Shown: positions 9,545 to 62,597 of the stretch, one piece after another
How positions within the stretch are numbered: the stretch's first letter is position 1
Layout of the letters: each line of letters opens with the position of its first letter
Source: a virus
Direction: 5' to 3' (one strand)
Virus record (IMG/VR): IMGVR_UViG_3300018057_000010
Location: 1 to 64,000 of that record
Length of the DNA stretch: 64,000 nt
Translations under genes and position numbers: made by a program
Notes under the pieces: generated by a model
Database searches by the model: none
The model's input: only the letters and a program-made list of their open reading frames with translations
What the model was told of the DNA's origin: nothing

Positions 9545-9775
9545 CGTTATTGCCACCCAACTATCCGTGGCATTCCCTTTCAGCCCTAGATAGGGCAGAG
9601 ATATATCGCGTTCCTCAGCCGCAAGCTGCGTCCCAAGAGGAACCGAACCAAAGTCCGATTCCTGGACTTCTTGCTGACTGGATATCTCTGTCGCCTTCAG
9701 GCTGCGGAGCCGGGCTCCTTCCCTCTGGTGCAGATCGAACTGGTGGAGCCCGAAGGCCCCATAAAACTTGCGCCG
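9545..9775 (-). ncRNA. Candidate structured RNA in capsid 5' leader
   Basis: ~230-nt intergenic region with several hairpins (GGGGCC-UUCG-GGCUCC; CAGAGAUAU/AUAUCUCUG; GCCCUA/UAGGGC; GCCAC/GUGGC). Confidence 0.45.
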
Positions 9776-23236: not shown

Positions 23237-24163
23237 TTACCGGCCCGCCGAGCGTGAAAGAAGTTCAGCGACTCGGAGGGTAAGCTCCTTGTAAGAGCAG
23301 TCGTGAGCCTTCGCGTATTGATCGATGATGGATTCGCACTTGGCGAATGCGAGGGTGATAGTGATTTGGGAGATGTCTTCTTCGTGTTCGTGGGAATCGG
23401 TGCTGGGGTTGTTGCCGCCATATTCTAGTTCTCCGTGAATGATCTTGACTGACTTCACTGTGATCGTTTGGTCTTCGTTCTGAACCAGCGCAGTCTGGGG
23501 CGACTGCCGTGTTAAGCCAAGTTTTTTCTCTTGAGCCTTTGCTTCTCTTGCTTCCCGGCGCACTGACCGCGCCCGAATCGAGGAAGCGGTCATGCCTTTG
23601 ACGCCGTGATCGTGGGATCGATGAATCCCCAACTGTCTGCGGTCAAGCATTTCGATGCCGCACTCGGGACAAACGAACTTACCGTTTCGTTTCGGTTTGA
23701 TCTTCATGGTAGAGATCGGCGTCGCAGCTGGGGCCTCGGGTAAGGCTGGCGCTGGGATCGGCTGCTCTGCAACAGCTTCTGTTTTTCTTTTTCTCATTGC
23801 CACCACCGAAGCGGAACTTCCGGCGACTCCATGTTGACGGCGATGAGAACCTAAGCCGGTTAGCTTTTCATAGGAACTCTCGATCCCTATCGCCAGACAT
23901 TCCGGACAGAGGTATTTCCCTTGTTTGTCGCGTTTGATTTCGGTAGAGATCTTCGTCGAATCTATCGCGTCCGATTCCTGGACTTTCGCTAGCTGTTCTC
24001 TTCGAGCCTTCGCGATTGCTCGTTGTTTCGCTGACTTGGAATGTCCCCTAATCCCATGAGCAGCCAGCTTGTGAATGCCAAGATGTTGTTTGTCCTTATA
24101 CTCGGCGCCGCACTTCTCGCATTTAAACTCTTGCGGCGTATCCCCTTGGGTTTTTGCGTTCAT
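23237..24163 (-). CDS. Protein with three C2H2-type zinc fingers
   Basis: CEKC-x12-H-x4-H, CPEC-x17-H-x3-H, CPEC-x12-H-x4-H. Confidence 0.8.
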   Translation of the reverse strand: MNAKTQGDTPQEFKCEKCGAEYKDKQHLGIHKLAAHGIRGHSKSAKQRAIAKARREQLAKVQESDAIDSTKISTEIKRDKQGKYLCPECLAIGIESSYEKLTGLGSHRRQHGVAGSSASVVAMRKRKTEAVAEQPIPAPALPEAPAATPISTMKIKPKRNGKFVCPECGIEMLDRRQLGIHRSHDHGVKGMTASSIRARSVRREAREAKAQEKKLGLTRQSPQTALVQNEDQTITVKSVKIIHGELEYGGNNPSTDSHEHEEDISQITITLAFAKCESIIDQYAKAHDCSYKELTLRVAELLSRSAGR

Positions 24164-31369: not shown

Positions 31370-33937
31370 TTAGTCTTCTTCGATCACGTTCCATTCTCCA
31401 ACCTTGTTACCATTCTCATCATGGATAAACCCATTGATGGACGGGTTTAACACTTCATTAGTGTAAGTTGAACGTCCGATTGACCTAACAATTGCATCTG
31501 TCACTTCCCATGCCGTTTGCATGGCATCGTTACCCAACGTAATTTCAAGCTTCAACTTCATTCTTCCCCCTCTGCAACTTGCTCGAAGTCGAAGCCATCG
31601 ACGGCAGTTCCGCCTTCTGCGTCTACCACGGACCAAGCGGCGCCGGTTTCAGGTTCAGTAATCCACCACTGCCCATGTTCGAAGTGTGCGCATAGTCCCT
31701 CACGGTCTATGATTTGACTAGCTGCGTCCATGACTCTTGCTTCTATCGCTCGCGTATTGGTTTCGGTTTTCAGCATCTTTAATCTCCCTTGGAGTTATGG
31801 GACGGCCGAACCGTCCCATAATTGGACTCAGACTTGACTAGGATCAGGCAAGCTTTGCCAGACTTCCGCAGCTGGGAACGGTGTTGTCTGGAGCTCTCGC
31901 TCTAGACGCGCTGCGGTTTGGCGCTGGAAGTCTGCCTCAGCTGGGTTTGTCACGGCATACTTGGCGACGAGAGCAAGAGCCTTGTCTCTTTGCCATGCCT
32001 TGAGCTGGTAAGGGTGAATTGGGTTCACTTGTCACCGCCGACACTATCCCAGCCATAAGGCGCCCGTCCTGCAATGGCCCTGACGAACTCCTCTTGAGCT
32101 TTCTCACGCATCGCTACGGCATTGTTCAACGCTTCCAAGTGATAAACGGCAATGCTGTTGCGCTCTCGCAACATTCCATCGATCAAATCGCCCGCATCCT
32201 TTAGAAGAAACGTTGCTGTGTTGGCGACAATCACCGTCGCATCTTCTAGAACGCTTTGAGCATTCGCTACCCGTTTCTGGCCCTCTGGCGTCTGCAAGCC
32301 TATCGGAGTGATGTCAACGGTTTTCGGCTGCGGTTGCTCGTCTTCCGTCTCCGCTTCGTCTTCGTCCTCAGCTAGGGAGGCTTTTGCTTCCTCTTCCGTG
32401 TCGTATACGCTCCAATCGGTACAATCCAAGTAACCGGGGGCACTCAGCCGTGCGCCGTAACCTTGAATGTTCTTCCATTCATGCGGTTCCCCTGCTGTGT
32501 ATTGCCAAATCGCTTTCTTGTACTTCTCTCGCTCGTCATCGGTTAGCGGTTGCACTTGCGTTTCAGAATCGCGGACGAATAAGCCTAAATCGCCAGCTGG
32601 TAGAAACTCTGTTCCGTCGCTCGTCTCAACTTCAAGCCAATTCTGCTTTCCTGTAATCTGCTGTTGCATATGTGTCATTGCTTCATCTCCTAACGGCTGG
32701 TTTTACCGTTGTTCGTTAACGCGCTGAAATGTTACACGCATCTCTTTGTTAAAAGCTTCGTGAGCGGCTTCAACTGCATAGCGCTCATGCCAGAGGACAA
32801 TACCGGCCTTGTGATCAGCAAGGCCGCATTTACAGCTATTGAGTCCATAATGTGATGGGTTAATGCGTACAAAATGGTGACCTTGTGCATTAAGCAGGTT
32901 GCGCATATGGAATACTACGGTTGATTCCTTTGCGATGCGCTTATCTCCAGTTTCGCGTATCAGGCTACAGCTGCCTGTACCTAAATTTACTTTCATTCCC
33001 ATATCTCCTAACGGCTGGTTGCCGTTGCGTTACGGTTTTACAGCTTTCTGTCTAAACCAGCTGCATTTATCAGCACCATGAGCGCCAGCTGATCTAATGC
33101 AGTAAGGTCTTCATGGATGGCAAGCCAAATCTTCGATTTCCGCTCTAAATCCTCTAAACATGCAGCTATAAAGTCGTCATCCACGTAGAGTTCAGAGCGC
33201 ACAGCTACAATTTTTCCGTTTCCATGCGGGCGAAGGATGGCCTTCAGGTTTGCAATTAAATTGGGTTCGTCTGTCATTTGTTTACTCATCTGGGTTAGTG
33301 GCAATGATCGCAGCGATTACAGGATCAGCCGCGAACAGTTCCGCCGGAACGGTGAACATATTAAGGTTTTCTTGGTCGAAAGGTTCGCTTGCGTTCCCTA
33401 AGTTGATAATGCCTGCGTATTCCGGATAACCTTCGCTGTCCGTGCCTGTCTGGTAATCGGGCAGTTCTTTCTCTGTGACTAGCAAGAAATCAAGATGCCC
33501 ACTGTCCGCAGCTGCGTCGAAAGCATCTTGCTCGCAATAGGCAAAATACTCTGGAAAGACAATTGCGGCCACGAACCCAGCATTGTGAATCACATAAGCT
33601 TGAGGGTTGCTGTTTCCCCAAACGTGGTGATGGAAATCATAGGAATCAGGATTGACAAAGTCTTTTTCTGCGTAATGGAAATCAAGATTGTCAACGTGTA
33701 TCGTGCGCGTGGAAATGTCTAAGGCTGTCATTAGTCTTTCGCCCCTTTCCGCTTCGAAATTACGTATCCCTCAGGGAGAGAAATGGTCATTCTTAAGATG
33801 TCACCTGTGGTCTTCCTAACGTCAAGCGGCTCCACATAGGCAACGGCATAGGGTTTGGTGTATACGCGAACAGCTACTTCAATGCGGTCCTGATCGTTCA
33901 TCCCTGCGATTACTGCTTTCAGCTCTCCAACTGTCAT
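31370..33937 (-). other. Array of small early-type phage genes (31370-31561, 31558-31776, 31828-32028, 32025-32678, 32703-33002, 33038-33277, 33282-33731, 33731-33937)
   Basis: Tightly packed short ORFs with SDs; visibly lower GC than structural genes. Confidence 0.65.
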
Positions 33938-34344
33938 TACTGTTGTCCTTTCTCTGCATAGAAAGACGCCAAAGCTTCACAAGCTAGTTCAGCCTCAATC
34001 ACGCGTCTGTATTCGTTGTTGGCGTCATCAATACATCCGAGACTAGCAATAACATTGCCTTTTTCGTCACGGCAAATGCACTGCTCACAGCTATCAGGTT
34101 CGCGTTCCGCATAGGCGGAGTCGGCGCCGTACGCTTCCTTGTGGTTGCCTATGCTCCAATCATCGGACCACTCGAACGTATAGCCATAAGCGCGGGCGTC
34201 ACGCTCTGCTTTCGCAAGCTTGCGCGCTGTTTTGTAAGCGTCTACAGCAGGCCGTGTTGACGAAAATGGGGAGTGGGTGAATTGGGATATAGTCGTGTCC
34301 ACAGATGTTGCAAGTGGACACGACGAGAAGGAAATGTTGGTTAT

Positions 34345-34650
34345 TTACTTTGAGTGGGAATGATTGACTTCGTCGGTATAGATGTTACTGCTGAGGGCTT
34401 GGCCCACAGCCAGGTCAAGTCGTTGGAGGAGTTGGGGTAAAGATTCGCCGTCGCGGCGTACCAGCAGGGCCAAACTATTCTGTCCGTCGTGAGCTACGGC
34501 GACACAGTCGAAGGGGCGAAGCACGCCGAGGGTAATCTGGCCATAGCGGAGGATAAGCTCAGCGAGGTTGTGCCGCGATGAGAGATCCTTGCTTGTCTTT
34601 TCTACGCTGCCAGGTCGACCGGTTGCGGCAAGTTTGTTGCGACGTTCCAA
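34345..34650 (-). CDS. IS66 passenger ORF
   Basis: Inside the TIRs downstream of tnpC; start uncertain. Confidence 0.45.
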
Positions 34651-36194
34651 GGTAGCAGTTCCTCGACACGGTTGATGGGATGATCGGCGATATGCTCCAA
34701 GACATAACGCAGATACGCTTCCGGGTCCAGACCATTGAGCTTGGCAGAGCCCACCAGGGAATAGATAGCTGCAGCCCGTTCCCCACCTGAGTCCGAGCCC
34801 GCGAACAGGTAATTCTTTCGGCCCACGGCAATGGAGCGCAAGGCCCTCTCGGCAGCGTTATTGTCTATCTCAATCCGACCATCGTCGCAGTAAAGCACCA
34901 GTGCACTCCAAAGGGCAAGAGCATAGCGAATCGCCGCCGCAGTGACAGACTTGGGTGACAGCTTGGCTAAAGACTCCTCGAGCCAGGCATGCATAGAATC
35001 TAGCAGTGGCCGCGCCCTTTGACTGCGAACCTGTTGTCGTTGCGCTGCGGGTCGTCCTCGAATTTCCTTTTCGATCGCATACAGGGCCGCGATGCGTTCC
35101 ACCGCTTCGCTGGCGATCGAAGACTGATGCGCTTCCACCAAGTCATAAAACTTACGGCGGATATGCGCCATACAGGGAGCCTGTTGGATGGAACCGTCTT
35201 TATAAATTTGGTTGAAACCGGCATAAGCATCTGCCTGGAGGATGCCATGGAAGTTCGCCAGATGCTGTTGCGGATGTTCTCCTTTGCGATCAGGCGAGTA
35301 AGCAAACCATGCAGCAGGTGCGTCCAAAGATCCCCAGGGGCGATCATCGCGAACGTAAGTCCACAAACGTCCGGTCTTGGTCTTGCCGTTGCCGGGAGCC
35401 AGGACCGGCACGGGTGTATCGTCGGCGTGCAGCTTGTCGGCCGCCATTACGTAGCGGCGCAAGGCTTCCACCAGCGGAGCAAGTAACTGACTACCTTCGC
35501 CTACCCACTTGGCTAACGTGGATCGATCCAGTTCGACACCTTCTCGGGCATAGATATCGGACTGTCGGTATAAGGGCAAATGATCACAAAATTTTGCAGT
35601 TAGCACGTGAGCTAGAAGTCCAGGACCGGCAAGACCGCGTTCAATCGGGCGGCTGGGCGCCGCTGCCTGCACGATGGTGTCGCATCCACTGCAGCACAGC
35701 CTGGGGCGCACATGCCGAATCACTACGAAGCTGGCCGGAATGTACTCTAGCACCTCAGAAATATCTTCGCCGAGCTTCTTCAGCGTGCCGCCGCAATCCG
35801 GGCAGGACTCTTGCTCAGGGAGATGCGTCTGAACTTTACGCGGCAGATGATCTGGCAGTGGGCGCCGCTTTCTGCCTGCTCTTCTTGCTGGCGAGGACGC
35901 AGTCTTAGCTGGAGTTTCACTCTCTGGCTGCGAGGCTTGTTCCGCCTGCTTGGCTTCCAGTTCTTCCAGCTTCAGTTCCAGTTGCTCGATCTGCCGGGTC
36001 AGCTTCTCCGACCGCCGTCCAAACTGCATACGTCGCAACTTGTCCACCAGCAGTTTCAGATGCTCGATCTCACTGTCGCTGGAGACGATCCGCAGTTGTT
36101 GCGCCACAATGATCGCCTTCAAAGCATCTGGCTCCAGAGCGTCCAGATCAGGCAACGAGAGGTGCGCGGCAACCATGGAAAAAGTATGCCACAA
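34602..36194 (-). CDS. tnpC: IS66 DDE transposase TnpC
   Basis: [47 protein letters not shown]. Confidence 0.97.
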
Positions 36195-36252
36195 ACTATA
36201 ACTTTTGCACCATGCAAAATGAGCTATGAGGCATATAACTTATCAGATACGG

Positions 36253-36600
36253 TTACACTTCCATCAGGGGTGCAAAGCTACGCGCCGGCCTCCGCCAATC
36301 GATACCTTCGCATAACATCGAAAGTTGCGCCCGTGTCAGCGATACGGTTCCACTCTGCGCCTGAGGCCAAACATAGCGACCACGGTCAAGGCGTTTTTGA
36401 TATAGGCATAGACCGTCTCCATCGTGCCATAGAAGTTTTACCAGATCGCCTCTGCGCCCCCGAAAGATAAACACCTGACCGCAGAGAGGACTCTGTTGGA
36501 GCACAGTCTGCACCATCGCACATAGTCCCGTAAAACCACGTCACATGTCGGTCACTCCCGCCACGATCCAGATATCTGTGTTCGCCGGAAACGGAATCAT
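36253..36600 (-). pseudogene. tnpB: IS66 TnpB accessory protein with in-frame TGA
   Basis: MIPFPANTDIWIVAGVTDM*RGFTGL; stop at 36541-36543 replaces Arg of the DMRxG motif. Confidence 0.85.
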
Positions 36601-37001
36601 CCTCGTAGGCTCTCCAGCACCGCCCGTATCGCCGTCAAGTCGGCACTGCCCACCACCCTTACCACGGCCCTTCCTGGAAACTCGATCTGAATCGTTCCCC
36701 TCGAGCCTTCAGTCGATTTCCTTGCTGGGGCTTCTTCCTGTGTTGCTTCGTCGTTGACTAGCACTGGCAGCAGACGCACACCTGTGCCTTCTGTATTACT
36801 GGACGGCTCGCCCAGGAGTCCTGCCTGATACAGCTTGCGCCAATGAAATAGTTGGTTAGCATTTATGCCATGCTCTCGTGCCACCATCGCCACCGATTTC
36901 CCTCCGCATAGCGTCTCCTCTACGATCTGACTCCGCTCCTCTCGCGTACGATACCGCCGCGTCATCTTCCTTCCTGCAATCGCCTCTGTTCCTGTCTCCA
37001 T
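36597..37001 (-). CDS. tnpA: IS66 TnpA (HTH)
   Basis: SVAMVAREHGINANQLFHWRK. Confidence 0.9.
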   Translation of the reverse strand: METGTEAIAGRKMTRRYRTREERSQIVEETLCGGKSVAMVAREHGINANQLFHWRKLYQAGLLGEPSSNTEGTGVRLLPVLVNDEATQEEAPARKSTEGSRGTIQIEFPGRAVVRVVGSADLTAIRAVLESLRG

Positions 37002-37339
37002 CCTTGCCCTCTCCCTGTGCCACCTTCAGTTGCACCACAAGACAAGAATGCCTAGCTGCGTTCATCCCGTCTAGACGGCCATCGCTCCACGCTTACGCTG
37101 TTTTAGCCTTGCCTTGTGCAGGGGTTTCGGTTTGCGGGTTGTAGGAATAGCCTGCATTTGCTAGGAAAAACCGAAATGCGGCTTGCTGTGCGGTTTGCTT
37201 CTTGGCTGGAAACATCTCTCAGCTCCTTTCAGGTTGTTGCGGTCTGGTTACCGCTGTCCATGATTCAATCACGGCTCTAAACTCACGTCAAGAAAATTAA
37301 ATGAATTTGCGGCATGGAGTCCGATAATCGGACATAGGT

Positions 37340-37476
37340 GCGTGACTTGGCAAGGCTCCATCGTGCCAAGTTGGCATGATGCAAGGCGCCACATTGGCGC
37401 CATGGTGTGATGATACGAAAGGATTTAGATTGGGAAGAAATACCAGAGTGGCACGATGCAAGGCGCCACTCTGGCA
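37340..37476. repeat. Iteron-like palindrome cluster YGCCA-N3-TGGCR
   Basis: Copies at 37364, 37387, 37441, 37464 in pairs 23 bp apart. Confidence 0.75.
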
Positions 37477-37481
37477 TGATA

Positions 37482-37946
37482 CTAGGCAATTAGGCTGTTG
37501 TAAATCGCATCTGGCAAGTCATAAGTGCGCCGTGCTACAAAGATCGATACACCCTTTTCAGCACACATCTCGATACGGTTTTCGAGCGAAAGACTTTCCC
37601 AATAGGACATAGCTTCCTCATATTCAAGGTTGCTCCAGTCGTCCTCACACAACACGGGATAGTCTTCAAGCTTGCTTTCCATCTCTTCTGCTAGCTTAAT
37701 TTGTTCCGTTGCTGTCTTGTGTATCGCTATCCATTCAATCCAGCCGCAAGCCCAATGCGATTCTCGGACCACGGTTACAAGAGAGATGCCGTTGTCATCC
37801 TCTCCCGTTTCTCCGCCTAAACGCTCCAAGGCAACGCGGAAGTTACTCCGCTGCAATGCGCTGGAATCTCTGTTTTGACCAAGGAATATGTAATAGTCAG
37901 GCCATGAGGCGCCACAATAAGAGTCTGGAAGGGTCCAAAGGTTCAC
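37482..37946 (-). CDS. Conserved phage protein
   Basis: RDS.AL.RSNF, HWACGWIE, LEDYPVL motifs. Confidence 0.75.
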   Translation of the reverse strand: MNLWTLPDSYCGASWPDYYIFLGQNRDSSALQRSNFRVALERLGGETGEDDNGISLVTVVRESHWACGWIEWIAIHKTATEQIKLAEEMESKLEDYPVLCEDDWSNLEYEEAMSYWESLSLENRIEMCAEKGVSIFVARRTYDLPDAIYNSLIA

Positions 37947-38200
37947 AGGGAGCCGCCTTTCGTTGCAGGCAAGATGCGATATGCACGTGACAACTCTTCA
38001 ACGGTGCCTTTTGTAAAAGATTCCCATTTGCCATTGACTAGGCGCTCCGTATAAAGCTGTAAGACTCTGGAATCATTCACATAAGAATGTGCGGTAGAAA
38101 TTCTAAATATCTCTCCGGGGTATGCTGCCAGCCCAAAAGTAGCGGGAAACTTGGTTATCGCTGCATCTACTAAAGCTCTCTGTTCTGCGTATCCAATCAT
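37943..38200 (-). CDS. Hypothetical protein
   Basis: 85 aa, GGAG SD. Confidence 0.6.
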   Translation of the reverse strand: MIGYAEQRALVDAAITKFPATFGLAAYPGEIFRISTAHSYVNDSRVLQLYTERLVNGKWESFTKGTVEELSRAYRILPATKGGSL

Positions 38201-38298
38201 TTACTCATCTCCTGACAGCTGGTAGCTGTCAGATATGATCCTGCTACAAGCGGAGAGTGTACGTCAAGCAAATTTTATTATTTATCGGAGTGGCAATA

Positions 38299-38328
38299 GA
38301 AAAGGGGCGACCGTTACGCCGTCGCCCC
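38299..38328 (-). terminator. Intrinsic terminator
   Basis: GGGGCGAC/GTCGCCCC stem plus T-run. Confidence 0.7.
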
Positions 38329-38387
38329 ATGTGCAGGTAACCAGCCTGCAAGCGTTCTACCGTGCGGAGATTAAGCACGGAAAGAAG

Positions 38388-38624
38388 TTAAGAAGATCTT
38401 CCAAAGCTCCAACACTGCCATTGCGAGTCATCTGTAAGGTATTCAAGCACCTTCCCGAGATCTTCTGACTTGACTTTATAGGTGCGGTGATTGTAGCCAA
38501 GGTAATGAGGGAGATCTTTCCCGATATCGGATTCCTCAATCACCATAACCTGTCTGTAGCAGCTTGAAGGTCGCCCCCAAGCGTTAAGACCTGAGCTAGG
38601 CTTCCTCTCTGTGATGACTTTCAT
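38388..38624 (-). CDS. Hypothetical protein
   Basis: 78 aa. Confidence 0.55.
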   Translation of the reverse strand: MKVITERKPSSGLNAWGRPSSCYRQVMVIEESDIGKDLPHYLGYNHRTYKVKSEDLGKVLEYLTDDSQWQCWSFGRSS

Positions 38625-39250
38625 AGCTCCTCATCTCCCCATGCGGCTTTGGCGGCCGCTTTCTCGCTCGCGAGTAACGCTTTGGTCTCTGCATCGAACA
38701 TTTGCGTAATGTCTTCATCGCGGTCTAACAGAGCGATCCAATCCCGCTCAATCGAGCCTTGTCTCGCGATAATCAAAATACCATCCTCACGGGGAATAGC
38801 CTTAAAACTGGTAACGTAAGACAGTGGAGAAATAGGTGCAACATACGTGCCATAGAATTCACACCCAAAGTGGTGACGTACATCCGGTTGCGTTTCCGAG
38901 TACCCACGTTTGCCGCCTAGATGAGCGCAAAAACTAGCCGCACCGCCTAAGTAAACGAACCCTTTCGGCTGCCCGTGGGGGTATCCATTCGTGTTTGAGG
39001 ACGGAATAAACACGGCTCGCTCAAATAGATCGGAGAATTTTGAAGCGGCTGGAAAAGCTAAGGCGCGAGAGGTTCTCTTACCCGCTTTCGCAGTAGCAAA
39101 AACAGACGGAACCCATGTGTATTTAGCTAGACGCTCCCAGAGCTTACCGCCAACTAGAGAACAGAATTCTTGAAAGGTCGTTGCTGCTTCGAATTCTTTC
39201 GCGTGCTCGTCGAATTCGGCATAAAAATCAAATGCGTTACTGTATGACAT
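38621..39250 (-). CDS. Hypothetical protein
   Basis: 209 aa, GGGGAG SD. Confidence 0.65.
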   Translation of the reverse strand: MSYSNAFDFYAEFDEHAKEFEAATTFQEFCSLVGGKLWERLAKYTWVPSVFATAKAGKRTSRALAFPAASKFSDLFERAVFIPSSNTNGYPHGQPKGFVYLGGAASFCAHLGGKRGYSETQPDVRHHFGCEFYGTYVAPISPLSYVTSFKAIPREDGILIIARQGSIERDWIALLDRDEDITQMFDAETKALLASEKAAAKAAWGDEEL

Positions 39251-39289
39251 TGGTTCTCCCCGCAGTGATCGGTTATCACTGCCTGTTGC

Positions 39290-39514
39290 TTAGTTAGTCT
39301 TGCGTGCTCTCCAGTTGTAGCCATCGGTGTACAGAGTCCACCCTTCAGGCAACGCCAAAAGGCACTCTTGCTCAGTTGGCGATGGCCCAACAGCGCAATT
39401 CGTTTCAGGGTCACGCGCAACGAACGAAAGGTCGCCGTCTCCAGGTGCATAGGCATGGATAACAGCGATACGGTCACCGTATTCATCGCGTCTGACTACT
39501 TCACTCTTGCTCAT
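39290..39514 (-). CDS. Hypothetical protein
   Basis: 74 aa, SD. Confidence 0.6.
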   Translation of the reverse strand: MSKSEVVRRDEYGDRIAVIHAYAPGDGDLSFVARDPETNCAVGPSPTEQECLLALPEGWTLYTDGYNWRARKTN

Positions 39515-39615
39515 ACTCTTCCCCCTAACGGCTGGTTGCCGTTAGTCCAATAATCGGACAGACGCGCCTCTCCCGTCAAGATAATTCAAATAATTATCTA
39601 GCAGGGAGAGGCCTT

Positions 39616-62415: not shown

Positions 62416-62597
62416 AACTCTCCCTTGGTGATTAAGATGGGAGAAATCATACCAGCTGATGGAAACTCGGATCGGAGAAATTCAGGGAAGGGATCGGCCT
62501 CCTGAAAATCGACTACTTTCCGTTCTATAGAATCGCGTTTTACCGGATTACAGACAACGGAGCTTTCGTTCGTCTCTTCAGGAGGCCCACAAGCTGG

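Follow-up and report, generated by a model that had tools for sequence, protein, structure and literature searches.

The first 64,000 nucleotides (nt) of the IMG/VR virus record IMGVR_UViG_3300018057_000010, referred to here as the window, represent the initial 64 kb of a 79,137-bp virus genome that is estimated to be 95% complete. The window encodes a large serine integrase, a DnaB-type helicase, a DnaD-like initiator, a large terminase, a portal protein and tail fibres, and the minus strand is the coding strand of nearly all of its genes. Between 39.6 and 31.5 kb lies a block that consists, with the exception of one 78-aa protein, of ORFan genes. Six short stem-loops, numbered h1 to h6 in the direction of transcription, occur within this block, each carrying a WACCR loop and each preceding the Shine-Dalgarno (SD) sequence of a gene. 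The original prediction had placed six such hairpins on the minus strand, and all were confirmed in both position and sequence. In this one phage the six sites span about 4 kb, which grows to 6.9 kb with an IS66 insertion included. Their stems covary around a constant loop, and we tentatively view them as leader elements that may protect and coordinate the mRNAs and keep the ribosome site accessible.

Three of the hairpins have 8-bp stems. Hairpin h1 (39545-39525, minus strand, as are all six; CUAACGGC-AACCA-GCCGUUAG) is followed by the SD sequence GGGGGAAG and the AUG at 39514 of a 74-aa ORFan, h2 (39282-39262; GCAGUGAU-AACCG-AUCACUGC) by GGGGAG and the AUG at 39250 of a 209-aa protein, and h3 (38232-38212; CUGACAGC-UACCA-GCUGUCAG) by the AUG at 38200 of an 85-aa product. 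The stem end of h3 overlaps AGGAG, and an alternative pairing would extend this stem to 9 bp and leave a triloop, ACC. The stem of h4 (37254-37239; GCGGU-AACCAG-ACCGC) is 5 bp long, and the gene that begins at its AUG, 37215, was later split by IS66. Stems of 6 bp, with AGGAG adjoining the stem, are found in h5 (33026-33010; AACGGC-AACCA-GCCGUU; likely AUG at 32996) and h6 (32710-32692; AACGGU-AAAACCA-GCCGUU, with a U.G closing pair; AUG at 32678 of a 217-aa protein). The loop reads WACCR in all six, and the hexamer AACCAG is identical in h1, h4, h5 and h6. From h1 to h6 the 3′ end of the hairpin lies 10, 11, 11, 23, 13 and 13 nt from the AUG. The stem end meets the start of the SD sequence in five cases, as first proposed; in h4, which had been put at about 10 nt before its SD, AGGAG sits 11 nt past the stem. 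The hairpin is present in the minimum-free-energy fold of all six leaders, in which SD and AUG remain largely unpaired. None of the hairpins is followed by a U run or has a polyG/polyC stem.

Hairpins h1, h3 and h4 are promoter-proximal. The promoters assigned to them, P1, P3 and P4, each consist of an AT-rich tract, the hexamer TTGACG, a spacer and a -10 hexamer on the minus strand. P1 (39550-39579) has TTGACG at 39579-39574, an 18-nt spacer and GATTAT; P3 (38238-38267) has TTGACG at 38267-38262, an 18-nt spacer and CAGGAT; P4 (37263-37291) has TTGACG at 37291-37286, a 17-nt spacer and TTGAAT. The stem begins 4 (h1), 5 (h3) and 8 (h4) nt after the -10 hexamer, so that the start sites predicted from the promoter consensus fall on the initial bases of h1, on the initial bases of h3 and 0-2 nt before h4. 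These three hairpins are thus predicted to stand at the 5′ end of transcripts, and the proposal that they follow shared TTGACG boxes holds, the boxes being present and the starts coming from the consensus. The other three, h2, h5 and h6, occupy promoter-less gene junctions, again as anticipated; the upstream stop codon lies 7, 11 and 0 nt away, and in h6 the UAA of the upstream gene falls at the border of stem and loop. The genes of the block without a hairpin all overlap the preceding gene (ATGA, GTGA, TAATG) and are translationally coupled to their upstream neighbour, and the hairpin therefore marks exactly the independent starts of the block. Two more SD-proximal hairpins with other loops (UUCG, CGAGC) are located downstream, at 31.8-31.5 kb, and farther on the pattern ends. 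The UUCG-tetraloop hairpin, at 31780-31805, has 11 bp, lies 10 nt upstream of the SD of the gene starting at 31776, and overlaps an operator-like palindrome (31812-31828).

Two covariance models were used, R1 built from all six hairpins and R2 from h1, h3, h5 and h6. With R1 the members score between 26.4 and 36.3 bits (36.3, 33.1, 34.8, 26.4, 34.8 and 32.5 for h1 to h6), and the best other match on both strands of the 79 kb reaches 16.3 bits. In a structure-consistent alignment of the six, double-sided changes are found at all eight stem pairs, none of 500 shuffles equalled the observed covariation, and 85% of cells are paired, a share that drops to 14-37% once the 3′ partner is shifted by 1-3 columns. 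The combination of an ACC-loop hairpin (stem of at least 6 bp), an SD sequence and a start codon occurs five times on the minus strand and never on the plus strand, compared with a mean of 0.65 and a maximum of 4 in 200 dinucleotide shuffles. The statement that the stems differ yet pair around a constant ACC is borne out. Because the stems covary, the asymmetric loop is oriented one way relative to the gene and each copy is tied to a translation start, the data support a strand-specific, RNA-type structure. In this sense the RNA element of the original prediction is partly supported, its “regulon” amounting to six sites in about 4 kb of a single phage. No Rfam family matched the 64-kb window at gathering score.

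The family does not provide six independent witnesses, since h1, h3, h5 and h6 are plain paralogous copies of one module of about 24 nt. The core of h1, h5 and h6 is near-identical over 20-22 nt, the flanks of the copies cannot be aligned, and two compensatory pair changes (transitions) together with one loop base separate h3 from h1. With R2, h2 emerged as the best non-training match, although a marginal one (15.8 bits, E 0.05), and h4 was missed; the membership of h2 and h4 therefore rests on their loop, perfect stem and position. Contigs from four metagenome runs contain no hairpin variant, the population being near-clonal, so there is no covariation within the population to draw on.

Near-identical modules in front of ORFans could also be read at the level of DNA. 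In such a scheme the module of about 24 nt would be a homology patch for recombination that shuffles ORFan cassettes, as has been proposed for the PeSL elements (PMC2839356), and the hairpin would be incidental. Both the shared core of h1, h5 and h6 and the setting, a plastic block of ORFans that tolerates IS66 insertions, fit this proposal. It does not, however, call for the compensatory changes that keep the pairing, as recombination homology has no need of them, nor for an asymmetric loop that keeps one orientation relative to the gene. The contigs of the four runs show joints related to insertion sequences (IS) only, with no deletion or circle joints between hairpins, although rare circles would be invisible in contigs. 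We consider a DNA-level linker improbable.

Comparison with relatives was possible at seven loci reached through the 209-aa protein, eight reached through two other proteins, and in two complete genomes (75.9 and 71.8 kb), all of them distant, with at most 50% amino-acid identity. Absence of the motif from homologous loci had been named in advance, jointly with a lack of effect of loop mutations, as evidence against the element, and this part is what was observed: R1 gave only chance-level matches in loci L001-L007, L009-L010 and L106-L111 and in the two complete genomes, G001 and G002, and the motif is in none of them. Across five Acidobacteriota genomes, among which the true host may not be included, the R1 matches were likewise at chance level, the best scoring 18.6-22.9 bits (E 0.04-0.9 per genome), all within coding regions. 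The block had no blastn match in 50,697 phage records, and an exact 20-mer from the h1/h5 core had none in IMG/VR. As the motif occurs in no examined locus or complete relative, the WACCR hairpin appears, as far as seen, to be specific to this phage lineage.

What the relatives do seem to share is a broader design. G002 (39% GC; the record from which locus L003 comes) contains four promoter-like boxes, AAAACCTTTTCATAGTC, at 62480, 62832, 63115 and 64388, that is within 2 kb, each followed directly by a short hairpin of 5-6 bp, different in stem and loop, and then by an SD and start codon. These are probably the relative's own early promoter cassette, and G001 (55% GC) has at least one similar case of a promoter box with a hairpin. 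The pairing of a promoter with a hairpin at +1 is therefore common to these relatives, and the ACC loop and the position relative to the SD are not. Separately, the minus strands of L108 (4573-4604) and L109 (3027-3058) carry ACAGCGGU-CUACCAA-ACCGCAAC..., a sequence close to h4 and its flanks, at the 3′ end of an unrelated open reading frame (ORF) and about 0.7 kb and 1.5 kb, respectively, from a homologue of the 154-aa protein encoded at 37482-37946. The local alignment score of this coding-region site was equalled by one of 2000 shuffles, in a search space that is large, and the resemblance may be a chance match or a remnant.

A motif missing in all relatives examined, four of whose six copies are clearly paralogous and whose population is near-clonal, might simply have no function of its own, the copies being recent duplicates of one leader segment that share a loop by happenstance. 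This would leave it to chance that the hairpin was kept although the flanks of the copies diverged beyond alignment, that h3 and h1 are separated by two compensatory double changes, and that h2, whose sequence is unrelated, forms a perfect stem of 8 bp while keeping loop and spacing. We hold such an origin to be a poor fit and give it little credence.

We favour, with a probability of about 0.45, a cis-acting leader or intercistronic stem-loop that stabilises the 5′ end of the mRNA and keeps the ribosome site free. The six stem-loops would then be part of the translation-initiation region of each independently initiated cistron in an early or accessory block. Hairpins h1, h3 and h4 would stand at the very 5′ end of the primary transcripts that start from three sigma-70-type promoters, and would act as 5′-terminal protective hairpins, blocking the 5′-end-dependent entry of decay enzymes, while the strong SD just 3′ of the stem would be held single-stranded and insulated from upstream sequence. 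For the internal cistrons, h2, h5 and h6 would perform the same role as decay barriers and ribosome-site insulators, to be melted by a ribosome that terminates on the upstream gene. The family may have spread by copying of the module within the block, followed by divergence under selection for pairing, and some common factor may additionally read the conserved loop.

Several observations agree with this stabilising role. Covariation at eight of eight pairs and the fixed orientation argue for a structure that is maintained as RNA, and the SD and AUG are free in the folds. The distances of 4, 5 and 8 nt from the predicted -10 hexamer match the geometry required of 5′-terminal stabilisers (PMC3997798), hairpins are found only at independent starts, a promoter with a 5′ hairpin recurs in G002 and G001, and SD-proximal hairpins continue at 31.8-31.5 kb. 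The weight on the other side comes first from the loop: a purely structural hairpin gives no account of a constant WACCR (AACCAG in four copies) when the stems of h2 and h4 have hardly anything in common with those of the other copies. Nor does it explain why the stem ends exactly at the SD in five of six cases, which the 5′ hairpins of G002 do not do. The start sites are predicted, with weak -10 boxes in P3 and P4, and there is no cross-genome conservation of the motif, which the relatives lack.

Because a structural role leaves both the constant loop and the exact abutment on the SD unexplained, a shared translational operator has real weight and is the main rival, although the less likely of the two. 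A protein encoded by phage or host would bind the WACCR loop, block (or help) the 30S subunit and so switch six cistrons jointly, for example in early shut-off. This is what a loop held constant on variable stems would suggest, together with the placement of five of the six hairpins, which end 10-11 nt before the AUG (taking the stem end of an 8-bp equivalent) and adjoin the SD, all with WACCR in the loop. The stop codons 0-11 nt before h2, h5 and h6 mean in addition that translation of the upstream gene would displace a bound factor. A precedent exists in the gene 43 hairpin of phages T4 and RB69 (PMC3014915), which likewise lies upstream of the ribosome site and has a specific loop, -UAAC-, to be compared with YAACC in most copies here; the operator includes, besides the hairpin, sequence that overlaps that site. 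The gene 43 operator is, however, a single autogenous site at which the bound protein, DNA polymerase, blocks initiation, in contrast to six sites in front of unrelated genes for which there is no known binder.

The search for such a binder was not encouraging. Six-frame searches of the 95%-complete genome returned no homologue of CsrA, RegA, Com or ProQ, and no RNA-binding Pfam domain was found in 45 non-structural ORFs, although a protein of an unknown family is possible. The only lead is a 308-aa multi-zinc-finger protein (23237-24163), in which several zinc-finger or zinc-ribbon-like motifs can be seen, the Pfam matches all being below threshold, and which might be a nucleic-acid-binding regulator. 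The position of h4, 11 nt from its SD, also speaks against an operator, and no relative carries the motif in which co-occurrence of a partner could show. The operator and the stabilising leader are not mutually exclusive. Two related ideas were rejected. A CsrA-type hairpin would present GGA in its loop, but here the loops contain ACC and the GGA belongs to the SD, 3′ of the stem; a CsrA gene is also missing from the genome. Base pairing between the loop and the 3′ region of 16S rRNA was considered because CCAGCC corresponds to the complement of helix 45. This sequence, however, is on the wrong side of the SD, and helix 45 is paired in ribosomes.

The reader of the loop need not be a protein. 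Three hairpins lie in the 3′ untranslated region (3′UTR) at the end of the first operon, and the final one is an intrinsic terminator on the minus strand at 38298-38328 (GGGGCGAC...GUCGCCCC followed by a U run), just before P3. Another of the three, SL2 (38332-38350, minus strand; UGCAGG-CUGGUUA-CCUGCA), has a loop (38344-38338) complementary to UAACCAG. An RNA derived from this 3′UTR could use the SL2 loop to pair with the loops and 3′ arms of the hairpins and so feed back on the six cistrons. Its 7-nt loop, CUGGUUA, starts with a YUNR turn, SL2 ends 3 nt before the terminator, and its complement is the best or second-best non-member match of R1 and R2. SL2 is complementary to h4 over 9 nt and to each of h1, h5 and h6 over 8 nt, giving duplexes of -17 to -18 kcal/mol that were matched by none of 2000 composition shuffles, in a comparison made post hoc. 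Set against this, target loops of 5 nt could not accommodate a loop-loop helix without prior opening of the stem, complementarity to h2 is weak (-6 kcal/mol), the E-values of SL2 in the models are just 0.06-0.12, and SL2 may be a mere inverted copy of the module or a part of the terminator. The accumulation of an SL2 fragment is itself hypothetical, and we see the antisense circuit as an outside chance. It would resemble the c4-like antisense control of phage P1, but with a repeated, covarying leader hairpin, and if it were true it would form a private post-transcriptional circuit in which the first operon's own transcript feeds back on the whole block.

Three promoter-proximal hairpins and a terminator behind the first operon also bring to mind a boxB-like nut site, on which an N-type antiterminator would load at the nascent hairpin and carry RNA polymerase through terminators. 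The boxB of phage phi21 (PDB 1NYB, PMC12550061) is likewise a short phage hairpin near early promoters, and its loop, CUAACC, shares AACC with the hairpins described here. Yet no match to boxA (YGCTCTTWA) lies within reach of any hairpin, the count of this pattern is at chance level, and the hairpins, sitting at the predicted start, leave no room for a boxA upstream. Arginine-rich windows are found only in alternative-frame ORFs, with no credible N-like gene, although a divergent protein could escape. Nor would a nut site be expected to be so closely linked to the SD or to occur in three internal copies, and we regard this as very improbable.

Control of the block may also operate on DNA. The window contains eight copies, where 0.1 are expected, of a 17-bp operator-like palindrome (consensus AGTCCGATTATCGGACT), with starts at 9652, 31812, 37318, 39544, 45287, 51444, 58081 and 63440. 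The copy at 39544-39560, which has no strand, covers the -10 hexamer of P1 at its centre together with the initial 2 nt of h1, and the copy at 37318-37334 is located upstream of P4. It looks like an operator for a protein on DNA and is a candidate binding site for the main repressor or regulator of the phage; its presence at P1 supports calling these promoters regulated or early. The palindrome is kept in sequence, in contrast to the hairpin arms, which differ among copies, and for this reason the possibility that the hairpins are themselves double-stranded DNA operators was rejected. A serine-invertase site was likewise rejected from the sequence, as neither a centre of 5 bp, an odd number, nor arms that differ are in keeping with such sites.

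Several described systems share part of this architecture. Closest are the PeSL cassettes of the T4-type phages RB49 and phi1 (Arbiol et al. 2010, PMC2839356), in which a unit with an AT-rich tract and a sigma-70-like promoter, then a stem-loop and finally the SD and start codon is repeated before small ORFans in a plastic region, with the stem-loop between -10 and SD in one subclass. Here only three of six copies have the promoter (P1, P3, P4). PeSL stems are G/C-tract terminators with loops that are not conserved, whereas the present stems lack a U tract and covary around WACCR, and the terminator of the first operon is a separate hairpin (38328-38298). The host phages differ as well, being T4-type in one case and an unrelated temperate-type peat phage in the other. 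In the 5′-terminal stabilisers (ompA, papA and the aprE leader; references, among them Emory, Bouvet and Belasco, collected in PMC3997798) a stable hairpin stands at the 5′ end or a few nt from it and precedes a strong ribosome-binding site, just as is predicted for h1, h3 and h4. They are, however, single and independent of the loop, unlike a family with a conserved loop and three internal copies.

The SAS and ESAS motifs of Cluster K mycobacteriophages (Pope et al. 2011, PMC3203893), for which a reader encoded by host or phage was suggested, are similarly repeated at the translation starts of some non-structural genes, and half of the SAS have an upstream inverted repeat. An SAS is a conserved 13-nt sequence that includes the SD, its repeats are 17 bp and conserved in sequence, and it is found cluster-wide, as opposed to a short covarying stem with a conserved loop in one genome. 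On this comparison the hairpins are not members of PeSL, SAS, boxB or the gene 43 operator type, since defining features fail (terminator function, cross-phage conservation, boxA and N). We would place their architecture closest to PeSL and also near SAS, the WACCR-loop version being what is new. The original description of the element as not described is therefore apt for this version and too strong for the architecture, given that PeSL, 5′-terminal stabilisers, SAS/ESAS and SD-adjacent hairpin operators are known.

The proteins of the block give few clues. The 209-aa protein behind h2 (38621-39250) has homologues (n=16, 38-56% identity), and the proteins at 38621-39250 and 32025-32678, each searched singly, had no relatives in IMG/VR. 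The AlphaFold model of the 209-aa protein is confident (pLDDT 91), with a helical N-domain and a beta-rich domain; compared with solved structures it had no significant match (E>0.2 in Foldseek; the best Z, 4.1, was restricted to the initial 60 or so residues). An Atlas search with the 217-aa protein (32025-32678) gave no usable match. Homologues of the 78-aa protein at 38388-38624 (phrog_22234), with 36-48% identity, are encoded in early regions of Achromobacter and Pseudomonas phages that are N4-like, which the present phage is not.

The gene behind h4 is split by an IS66-family element of 2,863 bp (34234-37096), with ends GTAAGCG... and an 8-bp target duplication, AAAACAGC. A contig of metagenome run X10 joins 34224 to 37096, as in an empty site, and the insertion is therefore polymorphic. 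In the tnpB-like ORF of this copy an in-frame TGA is found at 36541-36543; other copies, on contigs from runs X10 and X24, have CGA there (A>G at 36543 on the plus strand), and this copy thus seems to carry a nonsense change. Contigs of runs X10 and X17 join the IS66 end at 34234 to 38265, within the -35 box of P3, so that part of the population has a further IS insertion in the block, independent of the first. An exact search of genome contigs with an IS66 41-mer gave no match. The DNA of this phage is present in numerous peat and wetland metagenome runs, and since the nearest copies of the IS66 transposase come from metagenome-assembled genomes of Acidobacteriota (65-73% identity), the host probably belongs to the Terriglobia.

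Most early and accessory genes in uncultured phages are ORFans whose regulation is unknown, and here a covarying hairpin with a constant loop stands where the ribosome lands. Being small and easily mutated in either stem or loop, it offers a handle with which mRNA protection could be separated from control mediated by a factor. The hairpin could also serve as bait for a new RNA-binding regulator in phages of the Acidobacteriota, a host group for which phage molecular biology is scant.

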